From assembly GCA_030637805.1 (NCBI GenBank), contig DAOWFV010000136.1, forward strand, positions 1 through 30,553: a DNA stretch of 30,553 nt, in the 5' to 3' direction. The DNA comes from Acidobacteriota bacterium. Lineage in GTDB: Bacteria; Acidobacteriota; Thermoanaerobaculia; Thermoanaerobaculales; Sulfomarinibacteraceae. Below, piece by piece: positions 8,256-27,976 of the stretch. The stretch's first letter is position 1; every line of letters starts with the position of its first letter. The notes beneath the pieces were generated by a model. That model saw only the letters and a program-made list of their open reading frames with translations, had not been told where the DNA came from and did not search any database. A program made the translations under genes and the position numbers.

Positions 8256-8580
8256 ATTAGGAATTCGGAATTCGGAATTAGGAATTAACGGCGCGGGGAG
8301 GCGACCGAGTGGCTCAAAGTGTTGTGCCCGCGCTGGGGCACTCTCGGGGCGCGCTCCGGCAGAAGGTCGCGACACCTTTCAGAAGCGCAAATCCGTAGCT
8401 TTGGAACACGCGACGATCTGGAGTACTCGTACCCTCCGGGCGCCAGTACCCCGCCGACGGTAGCGGTTTGTTGCCGCACCCGGCGAAATTGAGAATTGAG
8501 AATTGAGAATTGCAGATCGAGCTATCTCCGATTTGGGCAAGCGTCCTTAACTCAAAACTCAAAACTAAGAACTCAAAACT
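8256..8580 (+). repeat. Family 3 composite element (TTCGGAA/TTAGGAA left arm, conserved GC-rich core, AACTCAA right arm) plus an internal AATTGAG array
   Basis: Arrays at 8256-8287, 8487-8512 and 8549-8580. Core 8289-8347 is 49/59 identical to the reverse complement of 13766-13824. Confidence 0.85.
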
Positions 8581-8637
8581 CCTCGCAGGGAGTCCTCCGC
8601 GAGGTTCCCGAGCTCCGACAGCGATATACTCCGGATA

Positions 8638-11600
8638 ATGAATGGGCCTTCGGTCGGCAGCTCGCAGTTGAGATCGTGGTGTCTTGCCCTTGCGGCGGTC
8701 GTCGTGTGCGGACCCTGGCCTGGCTGGGACCCCGCGCCGGTGGCCGTGCTCGGCCTCTGTGGCGGACTTCTTTTTCTCGCACGCCCGCGCGGCCGGGGCT
8801 GGTTGCCGTGGGTGGCGGTGGGTGTCTCGGTCGTGGTGTTCGTGTGGCCAGCCGCCGATGACGCCCTTCCCGAGGAGCTGTCGGCCCAGCTCGACGGCCA
8901 CTGCCGCGAGATGCTGGACGCGGCCGAGGAGATCGCGGCCAATCCGGTCGTGCTGCGTCTGCTCGGCGCCGCGGGGGAGGCCGTGGATCCCGCTCAGCCG
9001 TTTAGGGTCCTCGAGCGCGGCTCGCGAGGGGCCGCGGGCCGCACAACCTACCTCGCCGATGATCGCGGACAGGTCGTTGCGTGGGGTGGCGCCGAACGCG
9101 CCCTTCCATTCGGTGTCCGTCCTCTCGGTCAACGCCAGTGGGGGGTCGCCTGGTCTGCGGGAAGCGCCGATCTCTGGCTGCGGGAGCCGGTTTTGGTCGA
9201 GGGTCGGATGGTGGGAACGGTCATCGTCTCCGATCACGGCTCCCTGGCTGCTATCCGGGTGTGGGGGATGACGGCGTCGCGAGGCTCTACCCTTCACCTC
9301 GGTCTCAACCATCCCGGTACAGCAGTGGTGCGCGCCGCGAGCAGCCCGGGTGTGGAGGTTCCGGTCTCGAGCGCGGCAGTTGCTACCGAGTCAGGTTTCA
9401 ACGCGTGCTGGCTTGGATGGATGTTGCTGGCGGTCGCCGCGCTGATCTGGGAGCCAAGGATGGCATGGGCTGTGGTGATTTTGGGCTGGGGAGCGCTGGT
9501 GGCTGCTCCGGGGCCCCCCAGTGAGGCCGCGCTGGTCGTCGCGGTGTTGATGGCCGGAGCCGCGGGTGGGCGGCTGGGGACGGTTCTCGGTCCTCTCTGG
9601 GCGCGGGCCCTTGTTGTAACCGGCCTCGTGGGGGCCTCGTTGATGGCGGTCCTGGGCTTCCCGGCGGAGCGATTCGGGTGGCTGCCGGAGCACCTGTTGC
9701 GTCCGGGTTGGGGTGGCGCCTGGATGGTGGCTCTGGTCTGGTTGGTGGTGGCCTGGCCGGGTGTTTCACGAACGAGGTTTCCGCTCGCCCGCCGGCTGCA
9801 AGTGGCGTCCCTTCTGGCCCTCCTGGGCCTCGGCCTGCACCTGGCCCGCGTTCCGGTGGAGCTCGAACGCAGAGGGCGCGAAGGTCGCGGCGTCGTGCTT
9901 CCGCGCGGCGATCTCCAGCTGGAAGCGCGCCTGCCTGCGCCGCCGGAAAGCTGTCGCCTCGGAGATTTGGCGCCGGTTCTGGCGGCACAATGGGGGCTCC
10001 CCGGCTGGCGGACCCCCGCCGAGCTGGTCCTGGTCGGTGAGGACGGCGCCGAGATCTCCCGGTGGGGTGACCTTTCGCCGGCGGGAGATCGCATCCGCGT
10101 CGCACGGTGGTGGAACCTGGAGGGTGGCGCGGGACCCCAGTTGGAGCTCCTGGTGGCCACCGAACCCTGGAGTTGGCTCGGCGATTGGCGCACCGGGGTC
10201 ACCTTGGAGGAGGCCAGCAGCAGCCGGGTTTGGTTTGCCGTCCTGACGCGTTCGGGAGATGTCGCTGCCAGCCTTCATCCGGAGTTTCGCGGCCTCGACG
10301 CGATCACGGCCGGTGAGCTCTTTCACAACGGCGGTGGGTGGACCCGCCTCGAGGTGGGGGAGGACCGGAGGCTGGCCAGGGTGTGGCGGAGGGAGCAGTG
10401 GCTGGTGGCGGCGGTGGCCCCCCACACCTCTCGGTCGGATTGGGTCGTACGCACTGCGATCGCGGCGCTCTGGGCTTTTTTCGGTACCCTCCTCGCCCTC
10501 CCGCCGGTTCTGAGACGACAACATGTGTCGACCTTCGGTGGCCGGTTGCGACTGCTCGTTGCGGGTGGGGTCGTTCTGCCGTTGGCGATCCTGACGCTGT
10601 TCCTGCACCAGCGCATCGGCGGCCAGGAGCTCCGCCTGGAGCAGGCCCGCGGGCTCGAGGCCTTGAAGGCTGCGCGGTACACGATGATCAACCTGGGAGG
10701 GGCCTTCGCGGTGGACGATGAGCTTGCGCGTTGGCTCGCCTCGGGATGGGGCGGTGAAGTGGCTTTGTGGGATGGGATCGTGCCAGTGGCCACGTCGCGC
10801 CCCGACCTAGTGAGCATCGGGGCTCTGCCGCAGCTTCCCGCGGCTGCCGCCTACCCCTCGTTCCTCCTCGGCAGGGACGATCCCATGGTTCTCCGCTGGC
10901 GGGATCGGGTGGTGGCCACAGGTCCGGTCGATCTGCAAGGCAATCGTCTCTTACTCCACCTTTACCGCTCCGACCCGATTCGCACCGGATCGAACCTCGG
11001 GGCCGTCGATTGGCTACTTACCGGCGCCCTCCTTTCCGCCCTCCTCGCTCTGGCCCTTACGACCGGGGTCGAACGGAGATTGAGCGCCTCCCTGCGCGAG
11101 CTGGTCGCGTTGGCCCGAAAGCTCCTCGACGGTGAGCCCGTCGGTCCGTTTCCACAGCCCAAAGAGACCGATCTCGCTGAAGTACTCGATGCGGTTCGAT
11201 CGATGAACGAGGAAGTTCATCAGCGTGAGCTCAGCCTTCGCCATCAGGAGGAGCTACTCCGCATTACCCTCTCCACCCTGGCGCCGGCGGTGGTGGTGCT
11301 CGAGCCAGACGGGGGGGTTCGTTTTGCAAACCCGAGTGCCCGACGGCTCGAGGACGAGTACGACGATCTCTTTCTCGAGCGGGTACGTGTGGTCGCCGGT
11401 CGGGATTGGGCCGGGGACACAGTGTCCGAGACGGTTCAGCCCGTAGCTGGTAGTGACCTGACATGGAGGATCGGCGTGGCTGGAGTCCCCTTCCCCGACG
11501 GCAGTCGTGGCTTGGTGGCGGTGGTGGATGACGTCACCGATCTCGTGCGGGCGGATCGAATGCAGCAGCTCAACCAAATGGCGCGGATTGTGGCCCACGA

Positions 11601-12240
11601 GGTGAAAAACCCCTTGACGCCGATTCGCCTTTGGACCGAAGAGCTGGAGGCGGCGCGGCGCCGCAACGATCCCGAATTGGGTTCCCTCCTGGAGGAGGCA
11701 TGTCGGGAGATCTCGGTGCAGGTGGAACGCCTGCAGGGGACGGCGAACTCGTTTTCAAACCTGGTGGCGCTGGAGGTTTGGACGCCCGAACCGGTGGATC
11801 TGGTGCGACTTCTCGAGGAGGTCCCCAGCGGTTCGGAGATTCTCGAACGGCGCGGCGTGCGAATCGTGCGCGAGGTGACCTCCCCCGCACCTCCGCCTGT
11901 TACAGGCGACCGGCAGTGGTTGAGTCGCGCTTTAGCAAACCTCGTCCAGAACAGCATAGACGCTCTGGGAGGCGAGCCCGGAGAAGTGTTCCTACGACTC
12001 GCTTCTGAGGGTGACCGCGTGGTGCTCGAGGTCGAGGATACAGGAGGCGGCGTGCCCGATCATCGTCTCCCCGATCTCTTTTCTCCGCAGTTCTCGACAA
12101 CCACTGCGGGGAGTGGCCTCGGTCTCGCCCTGGTCCATCAGGTGGTGGCGCGATGCCATGGTCGGGTCGCAGCTGTCAACGGGGAGCGGGGGCTGCTCGT
12201 TCGGCTCGAGTTCCCGTCATCCATCCCTCTGGTACGATAA
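8638..12240 (+). CDS. Large multi-pass membrane sensor histidine kinase (NtrY-like C-terminus)
   Basis: 1200 aa; many hydrophobic segments, a HAMP-like and a PAS-like region, H-box AHEVKNPLTPI, N-box NLVQNS, EDTGGG, FSTTTAGSGLGL. TATACT 7 nt before the ATG supports this start. Confidence 0.88.
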   Translation: MNGPSVGSSQLRSWCLALAAVVVCGPWPGWDPAPVAVLGLCGGLLFLARPRGRGWLPWVAVGVSVVVFVWPAADDALPEELSAQLDGHCREMLDAAEEIAANPVVLRLLGAAGEAVDPAQPFRVLERGSRGAAGRTTYLADDRGQVVAWGGAERALPFGVRPLGQRQWGVAWSAGSADLWLREPVLVEGRMVGTVIVSDHGSLAAIRVWGMTASRGSTLHLGLNHPGTAVVRAASSPGVEVPVSSAAVATESGFNACWLGWMLLAVAALIWEPRMAWAVVILGWGALVAAPGPPSEAALVVAVLMAGAAGGRLGTVLGPLWARALVVTGLVGASLMAVLGFPAERFGWLPEHLLRPGWGGAWMVALVWLVVAWPGVSRTRFPLARRLQVASLLALLGLGLHLARVPVELERRGREGRGVVLPRGDLQLEARLPAPPESCRLGDLAPVLAAQWGLPGWRTPAELVLVGEDGAEISRWGDLSPAGDRIRVARWWNLEGGAGPQLELLVATEPWSWLGDWRTGVTLEEASSSRVWFAVLTRSGDVAASLHPEFRGLDAITAGELFHNGGGWTRLEVGEDRRLARVWRREQWLVAAVAPHTSRSDWVVRTAIAALWAFFGTLLALPPVLRRQHVSTFGGRLRLLVAGGVVLPLAILTLFLHQRIGGQELRLEQARGLEALKAARYTMINLGGAFAVDDELARWLASGWGGEVALWDGIVPVATSRPDLVSIGALPQLPAAAAYPSFLLGRDDPMVLRWRDRVVATGPVDLQGNRLLLHLYRSDPIRTGSNLGAVDWLLTGALLSALLALALTTGVERRLSASLRELVALARKLLDGEPVGPFPQPKETDLAEVLDAVRSMNEEVHQRELSLRHQEELLRITLSTLAPAVVVLEPDGGVRFANPSARRLEDEYDDLFLERVRVVAGRDWAGDTVSETVQPVAGSDLTWRIGVAGVPFPDGSRGLVAVVDDVTDLVRADRMQQLNQMARIVAHEVKNPLTPIRLWTEELEAARRRNDPELGSLLEEACREISVQVERLQGTANSFSNLVALEVWTPEPVDLVRLLEEVPSGSEILERRGVRIVREVTSPAPPPVTGDRQWLSRALANLVQNSIDALGGEPGEVFLRLASEGDRVVLEVEDTGGGVPDHRLPDLFSPQFSTTTAGSGLGLALVHQVVARCHGRVAAVNGERGLLVRLEFPSSIPLVR

Positions 12241-12244
12241 CTCC

Positions 12245-13627
12245 ATGAGGTGTCACCGAGACAAAGCGGTCTCGATGTTATTGCTCGCCGCCGTGGCGGC
12301 GGGGTGTGGTGGAGGCAGAGCTCAACCCTCATTCCACGAGGTGGCGCGGGCTCCGCGGCGCCTCGTGATGTGGCTGGAAAGCGAAGGAATCGATGCCGGC
12401 TCGGCGGGAATGCTGCAGCTCGCGGGCGTGGACGAGGTGGTCCAGCGGCGCGGGGTCATAGATGTTGCGGGACAGGCGCCGGTGCTTCGCCTGGATCCAG
12501 TTTCAAAGGCGGAAGGTGCGATTCCGGTGGGGATCGCGCTGGAAGTCCGGGGTGCCCGTCCGGGACTTGACAGGGCCATGGCCGACGCCGTGTGGCGCGG
12601 CATCGAGTCGGAGTTGGACGGGGCGATCCCGGCCGAGCTGATTCTCGACCTGCCCCATCTCACCGAGGGCCTCGACCAGTTTGTCGCTGACCTCGTCGAG
12701 GTATCGGGCTTGGTGGTGACGCCGGTGCTCAGCTTCGAGCAGCTGCAGGAGGAGTACGGCATCAAGGTGGCGCGGGCGGCCCGCACCTGCCTGGTTCCCG
12801 CCTTCGGTACCGATGGAATGGATCTGCGTGGCGTCGGCGAACTCGATCCGCTGCCCCTGGAAAAGAAGCTGGCCCCCCTGGTTGGTACCGGGGTTCGGGT
12901 ACGCCTCGCCATCGTTCTCCGCCCTCGAACCGAACCCCCGCTCCACGGTCCCGGAGAAGACCTCAATCCGCTTACCGAAGGAATGACCACCACGGTCTCG
13001 ACATCTTCCACTCTTGATCGCACCTTCATCTTCGAGAAGGAACTCACCTGGAGTGGTCGCAGCTGGGGGCCGGGTGACCGCCTCGCGGTGCGTTGGATGG
13101 ATGCGAACAGGCTGAATGCAGCGCTTCAGGAGATTCACCGTCTGACCCTGCCCGAGGTCGCCGGTTGGGATCTGGTCCCGCTGCCGGATCAGACCGAGGG
13201 TCTCGGCCTGGGCCGCGACGCACTACTTCGCTACCTCGGAGGCGAGGGGCCCGAACCGGAGGTGCAGGTACAGGTGACACGAGAGGGCCGGTCCTTGCGG
13301 GTGATCCTGAGCAACCCGAGTCCGTTTTCAACAGCGGTCTCCAGCTTCGGCAACTGGGTTCAAGTGTCGGTTGACACGGGGCGGTTGGTGGCCGACGACC
13401 CGGGCACCTTCGACCGAGTGGCCGTCGGGTCGGCGCAGGGAGGGCGGTGGCGGCAGGGTGGTGTGGACGCGGTGGACGCGGTTCGCTTCAACGAGATCTA
13501 CCTTGCTCCAGGTGAGACGGTGACAAGTGGCGTCGTACGCATGCCTACCAATCGGTCGGCGGCGGTGGTCCGGTGGCACATGATGCTCTCCGACGGTACT
13601 GAGCTTAGCGGACAGGTTGAACCCTAA
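12245..13627 (+). CDS. Hypothetical lipoprotein, 460 aa
   Basis: ATG at 12245, 4 nt after the kinase stop; signal-like MLLLAAVAAG|C lipobox; no confidently recognised catalytic motif. Confidence 0.7.
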   Translation: MRCHRDKAVSMLLLAAVAAGCGGGRAQPSFHEVARAPRRLVMWLESEGIDAGSAGMLQLAGVDEVVQRRGVIDVAGQAPVLRLDPVSKAEGAIPVGIALEVRGARPGLDRAMADAVWRGIESELDGAIPAELILDLPHLTEGLDQFVADLVEVSGLVVTPVLSFEQLQEEYGIKVARAARTCLVPAFGTDGMDLRGVGELDPLPLEKKLAPLVGTGVRVRLAIVLRPRTEPPLHGPGEDLNPLTEGMTTTVSTSSTLDRTFIFEKELTWSGRSWGPGDRLAVRWMDANRLNAALQEIHRLTLPEVAGWDLVPLPDQTEGLGLGRDALLRYLGGEGPEPEVQVQVTREGRSLRVILSNPSPFSTAVSSFGNWVQVSVDTGRLVADDPGTFDRVAVGSAQGGRWRQGGVDAVDAVRFNEIYLAPGETVTSGVVRMPTNRSAAVVRWHMMLSDGTELSGQVEP

Positions 13628-13684
13628 CCCGGACTACTCACCAGCTTCCTGCCGCGGCCAATTTCGCTGCCGTAGGCAGGCGTC

Positions 13685-13851
13685 GAGTTTTGAGTTCCGA
13701 ATTTGTGGCGCTCGCAAGGGTGCGGTGAACTGCTGACTCCGAGGCGAAATCTCTTCTATCGCGCGCCGAGAGGGCACCAGCGCGGGCATGACGCTCCGAG
13801 CCACTCGATCGCTTCGCCGCGCCGAAAAATTCGAAATTCGAAATTCGAAAT
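13685..13851 (-). repeat. Family 3 element, reverse orientation
   Basis: GAGTTTTGAGTT at 13685 and (AAATTCG)x3 at 13828-13851 abutting the trmB stop. The core shares CTGCTGACTyCGAGGCGA, GGGTGCGGTGA and CGCGCCGA with 22239-22502. Confidence 0.82.
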
Positions 13852-14436
13852 CTACTTCGGTTTCTGAAGTGCGAAGGAGTGGATCTCCCGTCCTTCGATC
13901 CGGTACTTGTGCTCGAAGCCGGTCAGAGGAAGGCCCGCGAAGGCCGCGGCGCTGTCTATCGGGTCCAGATCGGGGGTGTTGCCCAGCACCTCTGCGATGA
14001 TCTCGGCGTAGTCTTGATGGTCGGACTTCACCAGCAGGCGGCCGCCGGGCTCCAGAGCACGACTCAACGCCGCCACCGTCTCGGGTTTGAAGAAACGGCG
14101 CTTGTGATGGCGCTTCTTCGGCCACGGGTCCGGGAAGAGCACGTAGAAGTTGGCGACCGAGGTCTCGGCGAGGAGACGGAAGAGGAAATCCTCGGCGGTG
14201 GTGCGCAGCAGACGGACGTTGGTGAGGCCGCGCCGGGCCGCGCGTTCGCAACACAACCGGTGATATTTCGCGGCCCTCTCCACCGCGAGGAGATTTCGTT
14301 CCGGATTGGCGGTGGCGAGCTCGTTGAGGAACTTGCCCTTTCCCGAACCGATCTCGACGTCGGTCGGGGCTTCGCGCCCGAAGAGTTTCGGCCAGCGGAG
14401 GGGGACTGCGACCTGATCGAGGTCGACGTCGATCAT
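13852..14436 (-). CDS. trmB: tRNA (guanine-N7)-methyltransferase
   Basis: VEIGSGKG SAM-binding motif, FPDPWPKKRHHKRR, KSD, TGFEHK; ATGA overlap with the upstream deaminase. Confidence 0.95.
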   Translation of the reverse strand: MIDVDLDQVAVPLRWPKLFGREAPTDVEIGSGKGKFLNELATANPERNLLAVERAAKYHRLCCERAARRGLTNVRLLRTTAEDFLFRLLAETSVANFYVLFPDPWPKKRHHKRRFFKPETVAALSRALEPGGRLLVKSDHQDYAEIIAEVLGNTPDLDPIDSAAAFAGLPLTGFEHKYRIEGREIHSFALQKPK

Positions 14437-14876
14437 TCGTCGGCTGGGTCGTCCGCCAGCCCGAGGTGGACCATGCGGATCTCGACCTCCTCGGCGAACT
14501 GCATCACTCGCTCATCACGGTAGAACTCACCGTAGTGAATGGTCCGAATCCCGGCGTTGACGATGAGCTTGAAGCAGCTGAAGCAGGGCGATGCGGTGAC
14601 GTAGATCTCGCTGCCTTCAAGACGGGTGCCGTGGCGCGCGGCCTGGACCAGGGCGTTGGCTTCCGCGTGTACCGTGCGCACGCAGTGGCTGTTTTCCATC
14701 AGGCAGCCGACCTCGGTGCAGTGGGCGGCGCCGCGGATCGAACCGTTGTATCCGGTGGAGAGGATGGCCTTGTCACGCACGATCACCGCACCGACGTGCT
14801 TGCGGGGGCAGGTGGAGCGGGTGGCGGCCTGCAGCGCGAGGTTCATGAAGTAGCGGTCCCAGGAAACGCGATTCAT
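14433..14876 (-). CDS. Deoxycytidylate deaminase family protein (ComEB-like)
   Basis: STCPRKHVGAVIV, GYNG, HAEANA and PCFSC zinc-deaminase motifs. Confidence 0.93.
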   Translation of the reverse strand: MNRVSWDRYFMNLALQAATRSTCPRKHVGAVIVRDKAILSTGYNGSIRGAAHCTEVGCLMENSHCVRTVHAEANALVQAARHGTRLEGSEIYVTASPCFSCFKLIVNAGIRTIHYGEFYRDERVMQFAEEVEIRMVHLGLADDPADE

Positions 14877-14925
14877 GGCACGAGAGTATAACGCGCGACG
14901 CCGGACGATTCACGAGGTGCCTGTG

Positions 14926-15123
14926 TCAGGTCTCAGGTCTCAGGTCTCAGGTCACAGGTCTCAGGCTACACAGGCTTCAGGTATCAGGTCTCATTGAAAA
15001 ATTCATGAAAGTTGCAGAAAAGGCTTGATATCGCAGGAGTACAACCGATGATTCGGTTGCGACTTGCGATGTGCGCCCTGAGACCTGAGACCTGCATCCC
15101 AATTCCGAATTCCGAATTCTCAA
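14926..15123 (+). repeat. Family 2 element with an abutting AATTCCG array
   Basis: TCAGGTC-type units at 14926-14993. Segment 15015-15099 is 74/85 identical to 26470-26554 and includes the inverted CCTGAGA units. AATTCCG-AATTCCG-AATTCTC follows at 15101-15121. Confidence 0.9.
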
Positions 15124-15149
15124 CCCCTCATTCGTTCTCTCCTGTAGAG

Positions 15150-16973
15150 CTACTGTTTTCCGTTCCCCATCTGGGCTTCCCATGCGGCGCGGTAGCGGCC
15201 GTCGGCAGCGAGGAGCTCCCGGTGGCTGCCCGCCTCGACGATGTGGCCCTTGTCGATGATATGGATGCGGTCGGCGTGCATGGCGGTGGTGAGGCGATGG
15301 GAGATGAGGATCACGGTGCGATTCTCGGCCAGTCGCCTCAGGGACCGCACCCACTCGACCTCCGCCCAGGAGTCCATGGCCGCGGTCGGCTCGTCCAACA
15401 GGAGCACCGGCGAGGCGCGGAGAACCGCGCGAGCGAGTGCGATCCGCTGCCACTCGCCGACGCTGAGCTCGGCACCGCCGGAAAACCAGGTACCCAGAAG
15501 GGTGTCGAGACCGCCGGGAAGGCTCTCGACGATTTCGGTGGCCCCCGCCGCTGCCAACGCGTCGGCGAGATCGGTTTCCCGGTGGTCGAGGCCAAGGTCG
15601 CCGAGAAGAATGTTCGTGCGGGCCGTCTCGCTGTAGTGCACCGGCTCCTGGAAGAGGACCGTGACCATTCGCCGGAGATCCTCGACCCGGAGATCTCGAA
15701 GGTCGATTCCGCCCATCTCCACACGACCCTCCTGGGGGTCGTAGAGGCGGCACAGAAGCTTGAAGAGCGTGCTCTTGCCGGCACCATTGACCCCGAGCAG
15801 AGCCACGATGGACCCCGCGGGGATCTCGAGATTGAAGGCTGAGAGCACGGGCCGCTCCGAGGCGGGGTAGGAGAAGCTCACCTGGCGGAAGTGGATGGAA
15901 GGGGGGAGGGGCGCGGGCGGGGGCAGCGGGTCGGTGGGATCGACGATTTGCGGTTCGATCGCCAGGAAGCCGAAGAGGTTCTCGAGGAAGAGGGTATTCG
16001 CCCAGATCTGTCCCACCGTCTCGAGCAGAGATCGCGTCAGCCGCTGTCCCTGGCTGAAGGCCTGGAAGAACATCGCCAGCTCGCCGAGCGAAACCGAACC
16101 GCTGAGCGTTCGGACCACCATCCACACCAGCAGGGCGCCCGTGAGGGCCAGGGCAAAACTGCCCGCCGCCATCTCTGCCAGCGCCTCGGAGCGGGTGAGC
16201 TCGAGGCGCTCCCTTCGCAGGCGCCTCCGGACCCGCTGGAAGGCATCCGCGAAGTGCGGCCCGACACCGAGCAGGCGCAACTCGGGGGCGGTTTCGCGGG
16301 TGCACAGCAGCCAGTCGTAGTACCAGGTGCGCCGGGTGTCGGGGGTCGCCTCCACGGTCCATCGACGGTGGCGGATAGCGTAGCGGGCGACAACCGCGAG
16401 CGCCGGCGCGGTGCTCAGCACCAGGGCGGGGGGTACCCACCAGCCGAAGGGGGCGAGCACCGCCGCCATGGCCGCCAGGGTGAGGGTGTGCTGGAGGAGG
16501 GCGCCGATGTTCTGCACCAGGGTCACCGGCCGCTCGTGCGAGTCGACCCGGGCGCGGTAAAGCCGGTCGTGATAGTCGGGGGACTCGAAATGGGCGAGAT
16601 CTGCTGCGATCGCCCGGCCGTGGATCAGGGCACTCACATGGTCCCGCACCAGCTCGGCCTGGGCGGTGCGTACCCAGCGGGTGGCGGCGCGCATGAGCTC
16701 GCCGAGAAGAAGCAGCCCGGCCATGATCCCAGCCGGGAAAAGGACGCTCTGGACCTGATCCCAGGAGGCGCCGGCACCTGCCGTCGCCGCCAGGCGATCC
16801 ACCAGGACGCGTGTCAGAAACACCAGGGCGACGGGAAGCAGGCCCTGCACCACCAGGAGAACCAGCCACGCCATGGTCCACCAGCGGGCGGCGTCCCACA
16901 CCAGCTGCAGCGCCCGCGGGATGTAGGGCAGCTGCCCGCGCGCGTTGGCGATCAGTTCACCGACTGCGGTCAC
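15150..16973 (-). CDS. ABC exporter, fused transmembrane and ATP-binding domains
   Basis: N-terminal hydrophobic helices; Walker A GVNGAGKS, Q-loop LFQEP, signature LSVGEWQR, Walker B LLLDEPT, H-loop ISHR; GTG start. Confidence 0.93.
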   Translation of the reverse strand: MTAVGELIANARGQLPYIPRALQLVWDAARWWTMAWLVLLVVQGLLPVALVFLTRVLVDRLAATAGAGASWDQVQSVLFPAGIMAGLLLLGELMRAATRWVRTAQAELVRDHVSALIHGRAIAADLAHFESPDYHDRLYRARVDSHERPVTLVQNIGALLQHTLTLAAMAAVLAPFGWWVPPALVLSTAPALAVVARYAIRHRRWTVEATPDTRRTWYYDWLLCTRETAPELRLLGVGPHFADAFQRVRRRLRRERLELTRSEALAEMAAGSFALALTGALLVWMVVRTLSGSVSLGELAMFFQAFSQGQRLTRSLLETVGQIWANTLFLENLFGFLAIEPQIVDPTDPLPPPAPLPPSIHFRQVSFSYPASERPVLSAFNLEIPAGSIVALLGVNGAGKSTLFKLLCRLYDPQEGRVEMGGIDLRDLRVEDLRRMVTVLFQEPVHYSETARTNILLGDLGLDHRETDLADALAAAGATEIVESLPGGLDTLLGTWFSGGAELSVGEWQRIALARAVLRASPVLLLDEPTAAMDSWAEVEWVRSLRRLAENRTVILISHRLTTAMHADRIHIIDKGHIVEAGSHRELLAADGRYRAAWEAQMGNGKQ

Positions 16974-17177
16974 GGTCCGAGCCTAGCAGAATCCGAGCCC
17001 ATGCCCGTGCCCGTCTCTGTGCCCGATGTTCAGGAGCGCGCTACCGATTTCATCGTGACCTTTCTATCGGCCCTCTGCCCGTGAGGATGCCAGGCACCTC
17101 CGAACGATTGTGCCCACACCCCCAAAATTGTCAGGGACGGCACGCCCGAAGAAGCGCGCGGTCCATCGCTCCAGGGG

Positions 17178-17293
17178 CGCGCTTCTGATAGGTGACGCGG
17201 CCATTTTTTGTCGCGCCCCGGCGCGGGCATTTAGCCTCGAGCCGCTCGATCGCCTTCGCGCGCCGACAATTCCGAATTCCGAATTCCGAATTC
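17178..17293 (-). repeat. Family 3 element (partial), reverse orientation
   Basis: (AATTCCG)x3 at 17268-17293. The reverse-strand core CGGCGCGCGAAGGCGATCGAGCGGCTCGAGG...TGCCCGCGCCGGGGC and CACCTATCAGAAGCGC match 8289-8388. Confidence 0.82.
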
Positions 17294-20971: not shown

Positions 20972-21048
20972 GTGATACCTCCTTCTCGCTTCAGGAATCG
21001 TACGCCCGACCTCACGCCGCGTCCAATTCAATGCGCGAGATCTACGGG

Positions 21049-22197
21049 TCAGGGCTTCGGCGGCTGGGCCAACGAAAGGACGAGGTCGGTGAAGAGGGCG
21101 AGTCGTGGCGGAAGGCAATCGATGACAATGGATTCGTCGGGTTGGTGGGCGCCTTCTCCCACCGGCCCAAGGCCGTCGATGGTCGGGGCCCCCACGGCCG
21201 CGGCGAGGTTAGCGTCCGACGAACCGCCCCAGCGCACCCAGCCGAGGTCGAGGCCGAGGCCCTTGCCGATCTCCCGTGCGCGGTCGAAGAGCTCGAGGGT
21301 GGCTGGTGAGGCCTCCATCGGTGGCCGGTTCCAGCCGCCGGAGAGGTGGATCTCGCTGCCGGCAAGCGTTGGTTGCAGTGCATGAAGAGCGGTGGTCAGT
21401 CGCTCGGTTTCGTGCTCGGTCCATGCCCGCACATCGACCCGAATCTCAGCCCGATCAGGGACCATGTTGCTTGCGGATCCGCCCGTGATGACGTTTGGAC
21501 CCACGGTGGTTCCGAGGGCGGGATCTTCGAGTCCGAGGATAGCCAGAATCTGGTGTGCGGCCTCGACCACAGCGTTGATCCCGCGCTCCGGTTCGACCCC
21601 CTGATGGGTGGCGCGGCCTCGGATGTCGACGATGAACTCGCCGGAGCCCTTGCGCGCCAGCTTCAGACTGCCCTCGAGATTCGTCGGTTCGAGGACGAGG
21701 ACGAAGTCTGAACGCCGCGCCGCTTCCTCGATGAACCGGCGCGACCCTGGCGCCCCGACCTCTTCATCAGGGGTGAGCAGCATCTCGAGATGGGGGTGGG
21801 AGTGACCCGATGCGTCGAGATAGCGCAGCAGCCACGGAATGAAAAGCAGGCCGCCCTTCATGTCGTAGACCCCGGGGCCGTACGCTCGTCCACCCTCGAC
21901 CCGCCACAGACTCGGCCACGATCCGATCGGCCAGATCGTGTCGTAGTGAGCGAGGATCAGGATCCTGGCGCCGTTGCCGCTGCGAGTGAGGCGCAACACC
22001 GGACCATGCTGCTGCAGGTTTTCGCGCTCGAGACGACCCAACGAGGCCAGGCGATCGGCGAGGAATTCGGCCGCTTCCTGCAGATTCGTCAGATTCCCGG
22101 AAGGGGTCTCGATGGCGGTCAGAGCCTGCAACTCGACCAGGTAATCCTGCAGGTGGCCGGCGAAGAAGTCGAGACTCTCCATGAGCCGGGCGATCAC
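21049..22197 (-). CDS. M20-family metallopeptidase (glutamate carboxypeptidase-like)
   Basis: LAHYDT, GPGVYDMKGG, PDEEVG, LVLEP, GGSSDAN, DGLGP.GEGAH; AAGGAG 7 nt before GTG 22197 (ATG 22182 is an alternative). Confidence 0.92.
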   Translation of the reverse strand: MIARLMESLDFFAGHLQDYLVELQALTAIETPSGNLTNLQEAAEFLADRLASLGRLERENLQQHGPVLRLTRSGNGARILILAHYDTIWPIGSWPSLWRVEGGRAYGPGVYDMKGGLLFIPWLLRYLDASGHSHPHLEMLLTPDEEVGAPGSRRFIEEAARRSDFVLVLEPTNLEGSLKLARKGSGEFIVDIRGRATHQGVEPERGINAVVEAAHQILAILGLEDPALGTTVGPNVITGGSASNMVPDRAEIRVDVRAWTEHETERLTTALHALQPTLAGSEIHLSGGWNRPPMEASPATLELFDRAREIGKGLGLDLGWVRWGGSSDANLAAAVGAPTIDGLGPVGEGAHQPDESIVIDCLPPRLALFTDLVLSLAQPPKP

Positions 22198-22238
22198 ACA
22201 CCATCTCCTTGACGGAATCAAGAGGCGGAAGAGAAGAG

Positions 22239-22502
22239 AGTTCTCAGTTTTGAGTTCTTAGTTTTGAGTTACGGGCGCCCTGCGGGTGCGGTGACCCACC
22301 GCCGTAAGCGGGTGGCCCGCGATTGGGCGCGTTCCGGCGACGGGCTGCTGACTTCGAGGCGACCTTCTATCGTCGCGCGTCCCGAGAGGATGCCAGGGAC
22401 CTTCGAAGTAACGCGCCCAAGCGCGGCCGACATGCCCCGAGGTCCCCAGTCGCCTCCTCGCGCCGATAATTCCTAATTCCTAATTCCTAATTCCCAATTC
22501 CT
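22239..22502 (-). repeat. Family 3 element, full length, reverse orientation
   Basis: AGTTTTG/AGTTCTT array at 22239-22271 and (AATTCCT)x4 at 22468-22500. Reverse-strand core CGGCGCGAGGAGGCGA...CCGCGCTTGGG...CTCTCGG...AGAAGGTCGC. Confidence 0.87.
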
Positions 22503-22531
22503 CGCGCCCTATGGGCGCCGCGAGGGCCGTG

Positions 22532-23371
22532 TCAGCTTTCCCCCCGCCATGCCGGGAGTCTGATGATGAAAGTGCTGCCTTCGCCGAGGGTGCTCTCCAC
22601 CTCCAGGGTGCCGCCGAAGGCTTGCACCAGCCGGCGGCAGACGGCGAGACCGAGGCCCGAACCCTGCCGTCGCTCGCCCGGCTCGCGGTGGAGTTGGGCG
22701 AACGCGTGGAAAATCTCATCGATCCGGCCCTGGGGGATACCGACACCGTCGTCCTCGACCTCGAGCACGACCGTGTCCGCGTCCACCCGCGCCTTGAGCC
22801 CGAGGTGGCCTCCCGCCGGCGTGAACTTGACGGCGTTGTCCAGCAGGCGACGCAGCACCTCCCGCATGCGCCCGGCGTCGACCATGACGGCGGGCAGCCC
22901 GGGGGCGACCTCGGCAGCCAAACCGAGACCGCTGCGATCGGTGATAGCACGCGTCTCCTCCATGACCTCGTCCACTAAAGGCTCGATCTCGACCGGCGCG
23001 AGGTCGAGCTGGAGGTTGCCGGTCTCGAAGGCGGAGAGATCCACCATGTCGAGAATCAGGTGGCGCAATCTCAGAACACTGTCGTAGACGATATGAAGAA
23101 ACGAGAGCTGTTCTTCGGAAAGACCCTCGGTGAGGTCCGAGAGGATGATTTCCAGGTAGCTCTGGATGATCGTGAGCGGGGTCTTGACCTCGTGGGCTGC
23201 GGCGGAGAGGAAACGACCTCCGGCCTCCTCGATCTCAGCCAGCCTCTGCTGAAGTGCCTCCACCTCGCGGGTGCGCTCCTTCAGGGTCTGGTGCAGCGCC
23301 GCCACGTCGGACGGCGAATCCGCCTCCTGTGGGGCGTTGTCGGGGTGGGGCAGGGGACGGCGTGCTACCAT
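22532..23371 (-). CDS. Cytoplasmic histidine kinase (HisKA + HATPase) lacking a sensor domain
   Basis: AAHEVKTPLT, LLDNAVKFT, EDDGVGIP, GSGLGLAV; the N-terminus is only a short coiled coil. Start is ATG 23371 or TTG 23383. Confidence 0.9.
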   Translation of the reverse strand: MVARRPLPHPDNAPQEADSPSDVAALHQTLKERTREVEALQQRLAEIEEAGGRFLSAAAHEVKTPLTIIQSYLEIILSDLTEGLSEEQLSFLHIVYDSVLRLRHLILDMVDLSAFETGNLQLDLAPVEIEPLVDEVMEETRAITDRSGLGLAAEVAPGLPAVMVDAGRMREVLRRLLDNAVKFTPAGGHLGLKARVDADTVVLEVEDDGVGIPQGRIDEIFHAFAQLHREPGERRQGSGLGLAVCRRLVQAFGGTLEVESTLGEGSTFIIRLPAWRGES

Positions 23372-23484
23372 CGGTTTACTCAACTAGGACGCCCCGAGTA
23401 TACGGGGTGCCGGCTGATTCTCGTAGCGGGGTGGGCGCGATTCGCAGGGTGCAACCGAAGGTCAATTCGGCGGATGCGAGGTGG

Positions 23485-25329
23485 ATGAGCGCCTCATCGA
23501 GGTGCTCTGCCCAGACCGGCTGTCGCTTTTCTCGAAGGGCTGGACAACGAGTCGGGAATCTCGTTGTGGCCTGCCTGCTCCTGGTCCCCGCGGTGGTGTG
23601 GTGCGCCGAACGCGACCCGCGGATCATCGACATCTCCTTTGAGCCGCACGGCACGATCCGCTGGGAACGTGGAGGGCATCCGGTGCTCCTCGTGGTCCCG
23701 AGATCGGGTGAAGGCTGGATCACCCTGGCGCAGCGCCTCACCGGCAGCCAGGCTACGGTGGGGTCGCTGCGGCGCGCGAATCCTCGTCTCCAAGCGCCGC
23801 TCCGTGACCGTCCCGTACGGGTGCCGGTGGAGATCCTGCGCGGGGATCTCCGGCTCGACGCGGTGCGACGGCTCTTCCCGGTGGACAAACGAACGGTCCT
23901 GGGCTGGCAGCACTGGATCCTCGACCCGTTCCGTGATGGCGAGGGGGAGGAAAGTTGGGAGTGGTTGGCCGAGCTCTTCACTGGGAGGACAGACCTGGCG
24001 GGAGATCTCAAGAGGACCAACCCGGAGCTTGTCGCCACAGGGCTGAAACGCGGGCGTCCGCTAATCATCCCGGAGGCGCAGCTCTTGGGCGTCTTCAGCT
24101 CGCTGACACCGGTGGCGACCCCTACACCGGTCGCCACGCCCACGCTGCCGCCCGTTTCCACGGTCGTGCCCTCACCGATGGTCGCCCCCCGCCCCGACGG
24201 CGGCGGCCCCCTCGACTACGGCGTCGACCGATTCGGTGAGTACGCGATCTACCGGCTACAGAAGGGCGAGGCGCTGTACTCGGCGGTGGTCGTGCGGTTC
24301 ACCGGGCAGCTTCTCGCCAGACAGGTCAACGAGACCGCAATGACGATCGCCCGGCGCTCGGGCATCGATGATGTCACCGATATTCCGGTCGGGTATCCCG
24401 TCAAGATCCCCTTCGAGCTGCTGCTCCCGGAATACCTTCCGCCCGACAACCCGCGTCGCCTGGCGTGGGACGAGGGAAGGCGCGAGCTGGCGCACTTTCT
24501 CGAGGTGGTCCATGCGACCGACCTCTCCGGCGTGCAGGTGGTCCTCGATGCGGGGCACGGCGGAAAGGACACCGGTGCGGTCGTGAACGGCGTCTGGGAG
24601 GCAACCTATGCCTACGACATCATGTGTCGGATCAAGGCGAACCTCGAACGCCATACCCGCGCTACCGTATGGACCACCATCGAGGACGCGAAACGCGGCT
24701 GTACGACCCCTCCGCTGGACAGGCTCGAGCAGAGCCGTGACGCATTCCTCCGGACCCGGCCCCCGTACCGGCTCGATGACGCGGTGCTAGGGGTCCACCT
24801 GCGCTGGTACCTCACGAACGACATCATCCTCAACCGGCTCGATTCCAGCGTACCGCGTTCGAAGACGGTCTTCCTCTCGGTGCACGCAGACTCTCTCCAC
24901 CCGAGCGTGCGCGGCGCGATGGCCTACGTACCGTCCAGGTACCTGCGTCCGACAAAGCCATATACCGTCAGACGCCGGGACATCCAGCGGTTCGCCGAGT
25001 ATCGAAATCACCCCACGGTTCGCCTCGGACCCGAGTTCAAGGCGCGGGTCGAGGCATCTTCGCGGCACATGGCTGAAAGAATCCTGGGCAGCCTCGAACG
25101 AAACGAGATCGCGATCCACCCCTACGATCCAGTCCGTGACCGGGTTCTCCGCGGTCGGCGGAGCTGGGTGCCGGCGGTGTTGCGATTTACCGCGGCCCAG
25201 AATGCGGTGCTCCTGGAGTGCTGCAACATGGCCAACGAGCAGGATCGCTCCTTACTCCTGGAGCAGGAGTGGCGGGAGCGCTTCGCGCGCGCTGTGGTCG
25301 AGGGAATGGCGTCAGCGTTTTCGAGATAG
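23485..25329 (+). CDS. N-acetylmuramoyl-L-alanine amidase (Amidase_3) with N-terminal LysM-like modules
   Basis: VLDAGHGGKD, GVWE, FLSVHAD and AVLLECCN zinc/catalytic motifs; signal-like segment; T/P linker; ATG 23485 follows GAGG (start uncertain). Confidence 0.88.
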   Translation: MSASSRCSAQTGCRFSRRAGQRVGNLVVACLLLVPAVVWCAERDPRIIDISFEPHGTIRWERGGHPVLLVVPRSGEGWITLAQRLTGSQATVGSLRRANPRLQAPLRDRPVRVPVEILRGDLRLDAVRRLFPVDKRTVLGWQHWILDPFRDGEGEESWEWLAELFTGRTDLAGDLKRTNPELVATGLKRGRPLIIPEAQLLGVFSSLTPVATPTPVATPTLPPVSTVVPSPMVAPRPDGGGPLDYGVDRFGEYAIYRLQKGEALYSAVVVRFTGQLLARQVNETAMTIARRSGIDDVTDIPVGYPVKIPFELLLPEYLPPDNPRRLAWDEGRRELAHFLEVVHATDLSGVQVVLDAGHGGKDTGAVVNGVWEATYAYDIMCRIKANLERHTRATVWTTIEDAKRGCTTPPLDRLEQSRDAFLRTRPPYRLDDAVLGVHLRWYLTNDIILNRLDSSVPRSKTVFLSVHADSLHPSVRGAMAYVPSRYLRPTKPYTVRRRDIQRFAEYRNHPTVRLGPEFKARVEASSRHMAERILGSLERNEIAIHPYDPVRDRVLRGRRSWVPAVLRFTAAQNAVLLECCNMANEQDRSLLLEQEWRERFARAVVEGMASAFSR

Positions 25330-25558
25330 ATTCACCCGCCCGCGGCGCCCGGTCATGGCAACCGCACCCGATGTTCTTCTGAGGCGCCTTTGACAATCAA
25401 CACAACCTCCTGCTATCGCGCTCCCCGAGGGAGCCCCCTTTGAGGTTTTGGGACTCAGCGGTGTTCTTTCCTCGGCGTGGCTGCTCCCAAAACCATCAAA
25501 GACGGCACGCCCGGTCAAGAGCGCCCACACCTGAGATCAGCCGGCCGCAGAGCGCGGG

Positions 25559-25585
25559 TAACTAAGAACTAAAAACTCAAAACTA
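25559..25585 (+). repeat. Isolated AACTCAA-type heptamer array (family 3 right arm)
   Basis: TAACTAAGAACTAAAAACTCAAAACTA, the same units as at 8549, 22239 (reverse) and 27938. Confidence 0.8.
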
Positions 25586-25698
25586 AACCCCCTTTCCCCG
25601 TGTTGGTGCTCCGGGTCACGTTCAACGCCTTGCGTGCGGCATCGACGCGACCCACATTAGAGGTAGGGAAGCATATCGATCGCTCGGAGGGAGGCGTC

Positions 25699-25992
25699 AT
25701 GAGGTCCTACCTTGTATTGACAGAGAACGGTCCTCTCCTCGTGATGACCTCCCGTTCGCGCATCACCGAGGATGCCCTCCTCGAGTCACTGCACCGAAAA
25801 GGCATCGACAAGTTCATCGCCTACGAGGTGCCGGTGGACAGGGTTCACGAGTTCTACGGCCTTCCCTTCGAGGTGATCGCGGCCGACCTCGACCAGGGCA
25901 AGGAGATGAGGGTCCTCGACTTTGACGGCCGCCACATCTTCGACTGCCTCTCTCTCGCTGAGCTCGGCCAGGAGATTCATTTCGAGCATTGA
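25699..25992 (+). CDS. Conserved hypothetical small protein, 97 aa (paralog 1)
   Basis: GGAGG RBS; 53/97 identical to the next gene (KFIAYEVP, EVIAADL, RVLDF.G.HIF). Confidence 0.85.
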   Translation: MRSYLVLTENGPLLVMTSRSRITEDALLESLHRKGIDKFIAYEVPVDRVHEFYGLPFEVIAADLDQGKEMRVLDFDGRHIFDCLSLAELGQEIHFEH

Positions 25993-26041
25993 GCCCGGTT
26001 CACGGGCTACAATGAGAAGCCGACTCAGGATTGGGGGTCGA

Positions 26042-26347
26042 ATGCGCGCCTACATCATCTTCTCCGGGACCGGTCCGATCCTCGTTCTCACCACATACCC
26101 CGCGCTCACCGACAGACGATTGATCGAGAAACTCGCCCACAAGGGAATCGGGAAGTTCATCGCATACGAGGTTCCGACCCCGCGGGTGCATGAGATCTAT
26201 GGTGTGCCCTACGAGGTGATTGCCGCCGATCTCGAGATCGCTGAAGATCTCCGTGTCCTGGACTTCAACGGCCATCACATCTTCAGCTGCTTTTCGTTTG
26301 CCGAGCTCGGAGACCCGATCAAATGCGGCGACGGTCAGGCGGGTTGA
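26042..26347 (+). CDS. Conserved hypothetical small protein, 101 aa (paralog 2)
   Basis: Tandem paralog of 25699-25992; TACAAT at 26008-26013 suggests its own promoter. Confidence 0.85.
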   Translation: MRAYIIFSGTGPILVLTTYPALTDRRLIEKLAHKGIGKFIAYEVPTPRVHEIYGVPYEVIAADLEIAEDLRVLDFNGHHIFSCFSFAELGDPIKCGDGQAG

Positions 26348-26381
26348 ACACCTGCCCGGCAGATACTCGATTCCACCCGCT

Positions 26382-26554
26382 TCAGGTCTCAGGGATCAAG
26401 TCACAGGTCTCAGGCTTCAGGTCTCAGGCTTCAGGTCTCAGGCTTCAGGGTTCAGGTAGCAAAAAGATCCAGAAAAAACTTGACATCGCAGGAGCCCAAC
26501 CGACGATTCTGGTGCGACTTGCGATGTGCGACCTGCGACCTGAAACCTGCATCC
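26382..26554 (+). repeat. Family 2 element
   Basis: About ten TCAGGTC/TCAGGCT-type units at 26382-26457, core TTGACATCGCAGGAGCCCAACCGA, then inverted CTTGCGA/CCTGCGA/CCTGAAA units. Confidence 0.9.
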
Positions 26555-26606
26555 AGCATCCGGCTTCGCCCTTTGGGCTACGCCGTGACAAGTCCAGCAT
26601 CTCGAT

Positions 26607-27218
26607 TCAGCGTGAGACCATCGACCAAAAATCCAGGCCGCAGGCTGCGAACAGCTCCGGTAGGCGGTGGATAGGCAAGCCGACCACTGTGTGCGGCGAA
26701 CCCTTGACCGCAGAGACCAGCAAACCACCGAGCCCTTGGATCGCGTAGGCGCCGGCCTTGTCCATCGGCTCTCCCGTGGCCACGTACCAGCGGATCACCC
26801 GGTCGCTCAGCCTCACTATCTCGACGGTGGCGGTGTCGACGAGGTCGTGGCATCGTTCGTCCACCGCTGGAAGCTGGTGAGATCTGTGGGCAAAAGCCAC
26901 GGCGGTGTGCACTTGGTGCTCCCTCCCGGAGAGAGCGCGCAGCATCTCCTCAGCCTCGCCGTTGGAACCGGGTTTTCCGAGGATGGCGCCGTCCACCTCG
27001 ACCACGGTGTCCGCACCGAGTACCGGTAGGCTGGCGCGTCCGGCGACCTCGAGGGCCTTGTCCCTAGCGGCTCTTCGTGCGAACGCCGTCGGCGCCTCCC
27101 CGGGTTTGGGCACCTCCTCAACCTCTGCCGGACACACCCGGAAAGGCATGCCAATCAGCTCGAGGAGCTGTCGCCGCCGGGGCGAAGCACTGGCGAGGAT
27201 TAATCGTGCCTCGGTCAC
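26607..27218 (-). CDS. maf: Maf-family nucleoside triphosphate pyrophosphatase
   Basis: LILASASPRR, GADTVV, ILGKP, HQVHTAV, DKAGAYAIQG, VVGLP. Confidence 0.95.
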   Translation of the reverse strand: MTEARLILASASPRRRQLLELIGMPFRVCPAEVEEVPKPGEAPTAFARRAARDKALEVAGRASLPVLGADTVVEVDGAILGKPGSNGEAEEMLRALSGREHQVHTAVAFAHRSHQLPAVDERCHDLVDTATVEIVRLSDRVIRWYVATGEPMDKAGAYAIQGLGGLLVSAVKGSPHTVVGLPIHRLPELFAACGLDFWSMVSR

Positions 27219-27288
27219 CAGCTCGCTCGTTTAATCGGCGGCCGGTCGCAGGGATTCACGTCCGCCTGGTCGATAGCAGGTACCAGTT

Positions 27289-27819
27289 TCAGCGCTCCTC
27301 GCTCGCCTTCACGATCACCACCGATTCCCGGCGGTCGAGGATCTCAACCAGCGTGCCTTCAGGGATCGGATGGTCCTCCTCGGAGCGCGCGGCCAGCTTG
27401 AGCTGTGCGCCCTCGACCGAGACCTCGACCTGGCCGTAGCCGTTGGCCGGGATCTCGCGAATCACCCGGACCTTCTGTAGGTCGTTGGCGAGCTGCTCGC
27501 TCGGATCGCAGACACGGCTCAGCCAGAATCTCAAGACGAAAATCCCCACAACGCCGGCGACGGCGCCGACCGCTATCTCATGGATCGGCGCAAAGGAGGT
27601 GAGACCGTGAACCAACAGGCTCGCCAGCCCGAAGAGGGTCAAGAACGACGCCAGCAGGTCAGCGGCGGGGAAACGGAGGCCGTGGAGGTGCTCGTGGGAC
27701 GGGAGAACGACGTGGTCGCAAAGCTCGCATGGGTGGAGAAGGCGTCGGGCGAAACCAGTCACCATGGCCAACGTGAATCCACCGAGAAAGATGATGAGGT
27801 AGCCGAAACCCCAGGTCAC
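27289..27819 (-). CDS. NfeD-like membrane protein with C-terminal OB-fold
   Basis: Three hydrophobic helices then VIREIPANGYGQVEV...AARS...IPEGTLVEILDRRESVVIV; TATAAT 6 nt before GTG 27819. Confidence 0.75.
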   Translation of the reverse strand: MTWGFGYLIIFLGGFTLAMVTGFARRLLHPCELCDHVVLPSHEHLHGLRFPAADLLASFLTLFGLASLLVHGLTSFAPIHEIAVGAVAGVVGIFVLRFWLSRVCDPSEQLANDLQKVRVIREIPANGYGQVEVSVEGAQLKLAARSEEDHPIPEGTLVEILDRRESVVIVKASEER

Positions 27820-27858
27820 GGGAGGATTATAGCTCGGCACGGCGGAGGAAGGAGCTCA

Positions 27859-27976
27859 GAATTAGGAATTAGGAATTCGGAATTCGGAATTACCGGCGCG
27901 GGGAGGCGGCCGGGCTGGTTTGGGGCCGGGTGCCCGTAACTCAAAACTCAAAACTAAAAACTCAAAACTGAGAACT
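27859..27976 (+). repeat. Family 3 element, short form
   Basis: AATTAGG x2 and AATTCGG x2, then CGGCGCGGGGAGGCG (identical to 8289), a short core, GGGTGCCCG and an AACTCAA array at 27938-27976. Confidence 0.88.

Follow-up and report, generated by a model that had tools for sequence, protein, structure and literature searches.

In the present study, we examined a stretch of 30,553 nucleotides (positions 1 to 30,553 of contig DAOWFV010000136.1, assembly GCA_030637805.1; hereafter the window) from a bacterium of the Acidobacteriota, family Sulfomarinibacteraceae, and a repeat dispersed in it that is referred to here as Family 3. The genome (G000, in which the window is contig C2) comprises 1.93 Mb in 264 contigs, has a GC content of 65% and is about 65% complete; the window DNA is also present in cold-seep and marine-sediment metagenomes. 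The initial annotation, made from the letters of the window, had placed at least five copies of an element with a structured GC-rich core between 8256 and 27976. By sequence inspection, Tandem Repeats Finder (TRF) and nhmmer, all five sites were found to carry the described blocks, four with a full core (each E<=5e-8) and the fifth with a weak, truncated one (E=0.07), and the identity reported between 8289-8347 and the reverse strand of 13766-13824 is exactly 49/59. Across the genome, core copies were gathered with an nhmmer profile built iteratively from the GC-rich part; they number 160, of which 138 are full length. Family 3 is a real repeat, with a copy number (160 cores in this genome) far above chance. 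Repeats with at least five copies make up 37% of the intergenic DNA of this genome, which holds 784 arrays of period 7, and 41 of the 160 cores stand at contig ends, where the assembly breaks at repeats. In the literature searched, repeats of this type have not been described for Thermoanaerobaculia.

The conserved unit is polar, and runs from a heptamer array of about 33 bp, with the general unit NARTTNN, through a TTAY junction into a core of 53 nt. The core consists of CGGCGCGGGG, about 23-27 variable nucleotides and CCCGCGCTTGGGCGCG; its consensus is TTAY-CGGCGCGGGGARGCG, a variable middle and GCCCGCGCTTGGGCGCG, with ends that are at least 90% conserved and a middle conserved to 35-80%. 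Three copies of a GGCGCG/CGCGCC box are borne on it in the order A, about 35 nt, A', TT, A. Arrays occur in the types GAATTCG, GAATTAG, GAGTTTT, CAATTCT and GAATTTC. An array stands within 15 nt upstream of the core in 146 of the 160 copies, and its type there is GGAATTM in 90, GAGTTTT-type in 27, GAATTTC-type in 15 and CAATTCT in 9, all variants of NARTTNN, with an interquartile range of length of 25-35 bp. The polarity is also seen from the side of the arrays, since of 169 GGAATTM arrays, 84 are followed by YGGCGC and only 6 are preceded by it. The two strands of the core differ in composition, its middle having 38% G against 18% C; a G-quadruplex reading of this G-rich sequence was considered and set aside, as only runs of two G are regular.

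The 3' side of the unit is open. No array was found within 500 nt downstream of 72 of the 160 cores, AACTCAA-type arrays follow at 3-288 nt in 37, and the complement of GGAATTM follows in 24. Where cores share one intergenic gap, they are convergent in 11 cases, in direct tandem in 4 and divergent in none, so that the arrays face outward. A single element with two different arms had been proposed at first, and this did not survive the genome-wide count, in which only some 17 of the 160 cores showed the combination GGAATTM...AACTCAA. Read on the opposite strand, the AACTCAA "second arm" of copies 4 and 5 of the window is a (GAGTTTT)n array leading into GTTAC-GGGCRCC. The (AACTCAA)n arm lies outside the unit and leads a second one, which is opposed to the first and placed on the other strand; the look of one element with two arms arises because two polar units are often fused tail to tail. 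The features of the window are collected in Table 1. For copy 3 the site was correctly placed, with an end put at 17178 that has to be moved, since the copy reaches about 17056. Directly outside its heptamer array lies a hexamer array, CGTCCG x4 (17300-17323), so hexamer and heptamer arrays can abut. At 579-685, inverted heptamer arrays, (AATTCTC)n...(AATTGAG)n, make a hairpin that belongs to a different family of the same mosaic; its weak, sub-threshold matches to microRNA precursors of plants and animals in Rfam (36 bits, where the gathering score is 102) were dismissed as an artefact of hairpin shape.

Table 1. Family 3 units and associated repeats; positions refer to the window unless a contig of G000 is named.
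Feature	Position	Strand	Basis and remarks
Copy 1, leading heptamer array ATTAGGA/ATTCGGA, 4.6 units	8256..8287	+	TRF, sequence; begins 16 nt past the stop codon of gene 6930-8240
Copy 1, 53-nt GC-rich core, CGGCGCGGGGAGGCG...GCCCGCGCTGGGGCAC	8289..8341	+	nhmmer E=1.5e-9
Copy 1, AGAAGGTCGC block, module E-like	8358..8388	+	sequence, module counts
Copy 1 region, internal (GAATTGA)n array, part of a neighbouring mosaic unit	8487..8512	+	TRF
Copy 1 region, (AACTCAA)n on +, equal to (GAGTTTT)n leading array of opposed unit	8549..8581	-	TRF, array polarity
Copy 2, leading array (ATTTCGA)n	13827..13851	-	TRF, sequence, gene calls; begins right at the TAG stop of gene 13852-14436(-)
Copy 2, core	13772..13824	-	nhmmer E=4.7e-10
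Copy 2, degenerate AGAAG block and two-unit AACTCAA remnant	13685..13760	-	sequence
Copy 3, leading array (GAATTCG)n	17268..17293	-	sequence, TRF
Copy 3, core	17213..17265	-	nhmmer E=5e-8
Copy 3, downstream modules: E-like 17212-17177, C 17158-17121, B 17104-17056	17056..17212	-	sequence, module families
Copy 4, leading array (GGAATTA)n	22467..22502	-	sequence, TRF
Copy 4, core	22413..22465	-	nhmmer E=2.3e-9; covariance model 73.7 bits
Copy 4, modules B-like and E, GGCATCCTCTCGGG...GATAGAAGGTCGCC	22343..22407	-	sequence, module counts
Unit opposed to copy 4: (GAGTTYT)n 22238-22270, AC-GGGCGCC box, 3' half-core 22305-22330	22238..22330	+	sequence; weak nhmmer E=0.06
Copy 5, leading array (GAATTAG/GAATTCG)n	27859..27892	+	sequence, TRF
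Copy 5, truncated/divergent core, 5' box intact, 3' box lost	27894..27936	+	nhmmer E=0.07, sequence
Copy 5 region, (AACTCAA)n on +, equal to (GAGTTTT)n leading array of opposed unit	27938..27969	-	sequence, TRF, array polarity
Array-plus-core tandems of 100/101 bp	G000 C15:450-602, C6:6583-6735, C149:3053-3205, C237:16259-16412
Module B copies bearing the nested palindrome	G000 contigs C4, C13, C21, C46, C52, C200, C207, C213, C237 and others		outside the window

Behind the core, recurrent modules are joined in changing combinations. The block order described for the window, core followed by TTCGGAGGTGCC/CTCTCGGG and then AGAAGGTCGC, recurs across the genome, with 0-1 occurrences in reversed-motif controls; the blocks CTCTCGG and AGAAGGTCGC are parts of modules B and E. 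Module B (B1, TTCGGAGGTGCCTGGCATCCTCTCGGG) has 47 copies in the genome, of which 35 follow immediately on the 3' side of a core, module E (GAyAGAAGGTCGC) has 33 with 22 on that side of a core, module C has 12 with 11 after a core, and module D has 57 with 18 after a core. Module D (CTGTCATCCTGAGCG...GTCGAAGGATC; for example at about 2150-2200 of contig C194 of G000) is mostly independent of the Family 3 core. In total, at least four recurrent downstream partners (33, 18, 14 and 13 copies) and many unique ones were seen. Two kinds of observation bear on copying. In four cases, array and core are repeated in direct tandem, the period being exactly 100 or 101 bp. Furthermore, 21 module B copies hold a nested perfect palindrome of 31 nt (CCGCCATGACGTTG-TCC-TCAACGTCATGGCGG or CCGATGTGACGATG...), which is flanked by a 13-nt direct repeat, GTGCCTGGCATCC, resembling a target-site duplication, and whose two arms change together, in a compensated manner, between copies. 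As the same nested insertion is present in 21 module B copies, the composite appears to have been propagated after the insertion.

Almost all cores (155 of 160) are intergenic. Genes were called here with a purpose-built codon-usage caller, and distances to starts carry some error. The strand of the core is random relative to the neighbouring genes: of the cores in co-directional gaps, 20 have the sense and 24 the antisense orientation, and convergent and divergent gaps hold 36 and 34 cores, respectively, convergent gaps being the richest per gap longer than 100 bp (36 per 96). Of 66 leading arrays that face a stop codon, 42 have their outer edge within 15 nt of it, the median distance being about 7 nt, and in those that face a start, the median distance to the gene 5' end is about 56 nt. 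Between such an array and the start codon there is usually a TAnnnT box, 6-8 nt before the start. Many array-adjacent genes show this box (often as TGnTAnnnT) 6-8 nt upstream of the called start, as for example at 15025-15052 of the window. Because the box stands so close to called starts, the sequence suggests widespread leaderless mRNAs, in which the array would occupy the -35/UP position. We also considered whether arrays serve as three-frame stops after genes, and rejected this, because all-frame stops are less frequent in sense-strand arrays after genes (36) than in the antisense of these arrays (76); the bias arises because the units are polar.

In E. coli, repetitive extragenic palindromic (REP) sequences and bacterial interspersed mosaic elements (BIMEs) insulate transcription units or protect mRNA 3' ends. 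By analogy, Family 3 might be a cis-acting gene-boundary element of the host, in which the array is a spacer or UP-like tract and the GC boxes are hairpins or factor sites, insulating units or protecting mRNA 3' ends. The tight abutment of arrays on stop codons, the usual TAnnnT box between array and start codon, and the narrow length distribution of the arrays are all in its favour. However, abutment on stop codons is also expected from intergenic compaction around tolerated insertions, and the orientation to genes is random. In addition, simple sigma-70 and terminator scans of 8100-28050 gave no excess over shuffles and no listed site on the core, nor did that scan find a sigma-70-like promoter on the arrays. 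The core does not resemble an intrinsic terminator either, its 3' hairpin having no T-run, its orientation being random and the number of predicted sites equalling the shuffled expectation. On balance, including the comparison of species given below, we regard this host function as rather unlikely, albeit an explanation to be taken seriously.

A dispersed structured small RNA had also been suggested, and a number of features are consistent with it. In this reading, each unit of array and core would be transcribed as a small unit of its own or would act in cis as a regulatory RNA, and its GC boxes would be alternative stems. Stems of 5-7 bp that exclude one another are possible between the three boxes, and 81-94% of their cells are paired; the core is strand-asymmetric; a hairpin of 11 bp is conserved in module B, and a C(UUCG)G-type loop is often present in the spacer that separates this module from the core. 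In 28 long forms, RNAalifold predicted box-box pairing and the conserved module B hairpin, without covariation, and in 108 cores it predicted only a 3-bp hairpin. The pairing of the core was counted on an alignment of 69 cores from three species. For the stem between 5' box and middle box together with GAG-yGG-CTC, 80.7% of cells are paired versus 80.5% in shuffled controls; the corresponding values are 93.6% versus 93.7% for the 3' hairpin CGCGC-TTGG-GCGCG, and 90.1% versus 90.2% for TGCCC-N6-GGGCR. In none of the three helices was compensatory change seen beyond shuffles; the variants mostly break pairs. Columns 16-53 are unpaired in 29 of the 69 sequences, and a mutual-information scan of 108 cores detected no excess of pairing. 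Hence the small stems noted at the outset as recurring despite substitutions (GAG-yGG-CTC, TGCCC-N6-GGGCR), together with two further ones, do pair in 68-94% of cells, which is not above shuffles, and the covariation by which a structured RNA was to be recognised did not appear in any helix. The stems are no more than a by-product of conserved boxes and of the self-complementary GCGC. Folding of the whole element is likewise ordinary (z of -0.6 to -1.6 against shuffles).

The search of Rfam that had been proposed for such an RNA gave no match on the five copies even at E<=1, and over the window nothing reached a gathering score except a tRNA. This tRNA-Gly(CCC), at 19071-19146 on the minus strand, is the only RNA gene of the window by Rfam and ARAGORN. 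Contigs from two RNA-library and two DNA runs do contain the repeats, and all four show excess coverage of the repeat bins; the arrays are where the contigs end, and the joints in RNA- and DNA-run contigs are repeat-to-repeat chimeras. However, in this comparison of contigs, the repeat excess is smaller in the RNA-library than in the DNA-library contigs, and the RNA-library sequences may be DNA carry-over or read-through. The lack of a sigma-70-like promoter on the arrays, the random strand relative to genes and the absence of a conserved core outside one genus speak against the RNA as well. Judged on covariation, folding, Rfam, strand and phyletic range, Family 3 appears poorly supported as a non-coding RNA (ncRNA), and we hold a small RNA to be very improbable.

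The distribution of the family was determined by running a covariance model over 77 genomes of the taxonomic family, with at most 66 candidates scored per genome. Core matches number at least 66 in G000 and at least 66 in a second species, G011, 29 in G013 and 26 in G022; nine further genomes of the genus have 1-9 and eleven have none. Outside the genus, one marginal core match was obtained in 52 genomes of 23 sister genera, and no match in the plasmids and phages searched. The core is confined to about half of the species of one genus. The arrays have a wider range: (GGAATTM)3 was found in 7 of 7 sampled genomes of the genus, core-free ones included, and outside it in one sister-genus genome; the rest of the 201 genomes of the class that were scanned are practically free of it (a single match in G226). 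Since arrays are genus-wide and the core is present in about half, arm and core can be separated, the arm having the wider range and presumably the greater age. In the sister-genus genome, G068, there are 162 matches, with none in the only other sampled genome of its genus or in the other sampled genera of the family; this array type is possibly an independent expansion or a transfer. Single pattern matches in Burkholderia, a deltaproteobacterial metagenome-assembled genome (MAG), Paracoccaceae, Phototrophicaceae and Hyphomicrobiales, one each, were taken as chance.

Comparison of G011 with G000 shows how the loci change over time. The flanking genes of the two species differ by about 20%, with an identity of 0.63 at third codon positions and 0.88 at the others. 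Nine G011/G000 gaps have both flanks on one G000 contig, and at eight of these orthologous gaps the core is present in both species, while the unit family of the leading array differs at five of the eight. Between orthologous cores, the identity is 0.81 in the 5' box, 0.52 in the middle and 0.77 in the 3' box, and between non-orthologous cores it is 0.83, 0.51 and 0.80, respectively. Positions therefore persist, and the boxes stay above the synonymous-site level, while the arrays and the inner part either are exchanged or drift towards the equilibrium of the family. At the first locus of the window, a GAATTCG-type array follows right after the stop codon in five species, with different material behind it, and G014 has neither. 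For the host boundary element, the persistence of cores at orthologous gaps, the array kept at the stop codon in five species and the box identities (0.81 and 0.77 versus 0.63 at third codon positions) are favourable evidence, which is offset by the lack of the core in about half of the genus and in all sister genera searched, and by a copy number that ranges from 0 to at least 66.

The same data bear on the possibility that Family 3 is a mobile element of the REP/REPIN (doublets of inverted REP sequences) or miniature inverted-repeat transposable element (MITE) type, moved by a dedicated transposase, a REP-associated tyrosine transposase (RAYT) or another, that recognises the GC hairpin. As in REP sequences, there is a short intergenic palindrome, CGCGC-TTGG-GCGCG, in 160 copies, 155 of them intergenic, and 22 of the 160 cores stand in inverted doublets like REPINs. 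The nested palindrome with its 13-nt direct repeat shows that insertions do occur in the mosaic, and genes for Y1 transposases exist in the genus. On the other hand, no Y1 transposase gene (PF01797) was detected in G000, of which 65% is covered, and the single one of G011 has no core within 1.5 kb (3.3-kb locus). The largest numbers of Y1 genes (6-12) were found in G001, G014 and G010, genomes with 0-1 cores, so that the two numbers run opposite to each other. The Y1-transposase-like genes of these three genomes are open frames of about 330 aa, twice the usual IS200/RAYT length. The GTAG/CGTC tag is absent from the 5' end of the palindrome, the core beginning with TTAY-CGGCGCG in the consensus, and there are no terminal inverted repeats as in MITEs, with an array on the 5' side and variable modules on the 3' side. 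Pairs of cores 0.5-4 kb apart enclose ordinary genes and no transposase cassette. No target-site duplication of the unit was seen in the orthologous comparisons, the nested module B palindrome alone having its 13-nt direct repeat, and the failure to match any plasmid or phage points in the same direction. We therefore give little credence to movement by a dedicated transposase. One gene cassette with tandem-array arms was observed: the single PF05635 gene of the genome (23S-rRNA intervening-sequence four-helix-bundle protein, 68 bits; L091:1462-1877, equal to C192:2270-2685 of G000) is flanked by inverted hexamer arrays, (CGTTCC)n/(GGGAAC)n, which are not Family 3 arms.

Overall, we believe that Family 3 is probably one module family of a genus-specific, non-coding mosaic repeat of intergenic DNA, which is maintained and reshuffled at the DNA level. 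Its units lie at the borders of genes and turn their array to the outside, where it adjoins stop codons or -10-like boxes. The family would spread and turn over at the DNA level by copying of composite units, which we infer from the 100-bp tandem duplications and the same nested insertion at 21 loci, and arrays and modules may be exchanged at shared arrays and boxes. It is suggested that this happens without a recognisable transposase and that the family has no role as a structured RNA. The GC boxes may be kept as the part that matters for copying or for factor binding, probably as short hairpins in single-stranded DNA, while the core middle of about 27 nt would drift freely.

Several points weigh against this interpretation. 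Neither a mobilising enzyme nor a target-site duplication or an empty site of the core was found, so that only tandem and composite copies speak for the copying of units. Two orthologous cores resemble each other no more than two non-orthologous ones do, and long-term selection at each site for a host function fits this as well as homogenisation does. The boxes are conserved above synonymous sites, which neutral junk would not show, and the tight position of arrays at stop codons and -10-like boxes could reflect function rather than tolerated insertion. Besides, distances to starts are inexact, because the gene calls are those of our own codon-usage caller. A bolder possibility, which we consider unlikely, is that NARTTNN arrays and GGCGCG boxes form a selected "gene-boundary code" of this genus, the boxes being read by a dedicated DNA- or RNA-binding factor. 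If true, it would explain conserved orthologous boxes while array units swap among a few allowed types, and arrays that stand in register at stop codons and directly upstream of the -10 boxes of largely leaderless genes.

For practical work on Thermoanaerobaculia MAGs, these repeats limit contiguity and may create spurious open reading frames (ORFs). In addition, a short tandem array and a GC-rich motif that are held in a fixed boundary grammar across species, while their sequence is exchanged, provide a natural system, and the question whether repeats such as REP, BIME and heptamers are selfish DNA or boundary signals can be tested within a genus that ranges from 0 to at least 66 copies.

Family 3 is a variant of the known mosaic intergenic repeats, namely BIMEs, Neisseria intergenic mosaic elements (NIMEs) and heptameric simple sequence repeats (SSRs), and most probably not an ncRNA; of the two readings first offered for it, the mosaic BIME-like element was supported and the dispersed structured ncRNA was not. 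A GC palindrome is combined with other motifs, extragenically and on either strand, as in a BIME. The BIMEs of E. coli and its relatives share with it hundreds of strictly extragenic copies, a GC-rich imperfect palindrome with variable motifs and inverted pairs, enrichment at gene 3' ends and convergent gaps, a lineage-restricted range and a debated function. In contrast to a BIME, the linker of Family 3 is an A+T-rich array of 7-bp periodicity in register with the core, and the core has three boxes and a drifting middle of about 27 nt, with no GTAG/CGTC tag and no link to a RAYT. Homology to the Y and Z motifs of E. coli REP sequences, which together with binding of IHF or gyrase marks the E. 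coli family proper, is not expected, because the organism is an acidobacterium. NIMEs, in which RS modules alternate with dRS3 repeats, resemble Family 3 in that a short linker flanks many families of modules of 50-150 bp in combinatorial mosaics, and their linkers are presumed recombination sites. The dRS3 linker of NIMEs is, however, a 20-bp inverted repeat linked to phage integrase, whereas that of Family 3 is a tandem heptamer array for which no such link is known.

Other heptamer arrays are the short tandemly repeated repetitive (STRR) heptamers of heterocystous cyanobacteria. Rehm et al. (2015, PMC4692102), who mention these, reported intergenic heptameric SSRs, GGGAATC in Xanthomonas and GGGGA(C/T)T in Nostoc. 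The period-7 arrays of the present genome, with a median of about 7 nt from the stop codon, are of this kind. Like Family 3, the Xanthomonas and Nostoc SSRs are about 90% intergenic, lie much nearer to the end of the upstream ORF than to the next ORF, can be on either strand, in some cases paired in inverted orientation, and stand between the same genes across related species with variable length and sequence (PMC4692102). They are G-rich (G4-forming) and free-standing, whereas the units of Family 3 are A+T-rich in a genome of 65% GC, have a fixed polarity to a GC-rich module and belong to unit families that replace one another at orthologous sites. Finally, with the REPIN/RAYT system, in which inverted doublets of a short GC palindrome expand within a genome (PMC3116915; for REP sequences see also PMC3733652), Family 3 shares its inverted doublets, but it has no associated RAYT, consists mostly of singlets, and its copies are old, being orthologous between species, and not recent.

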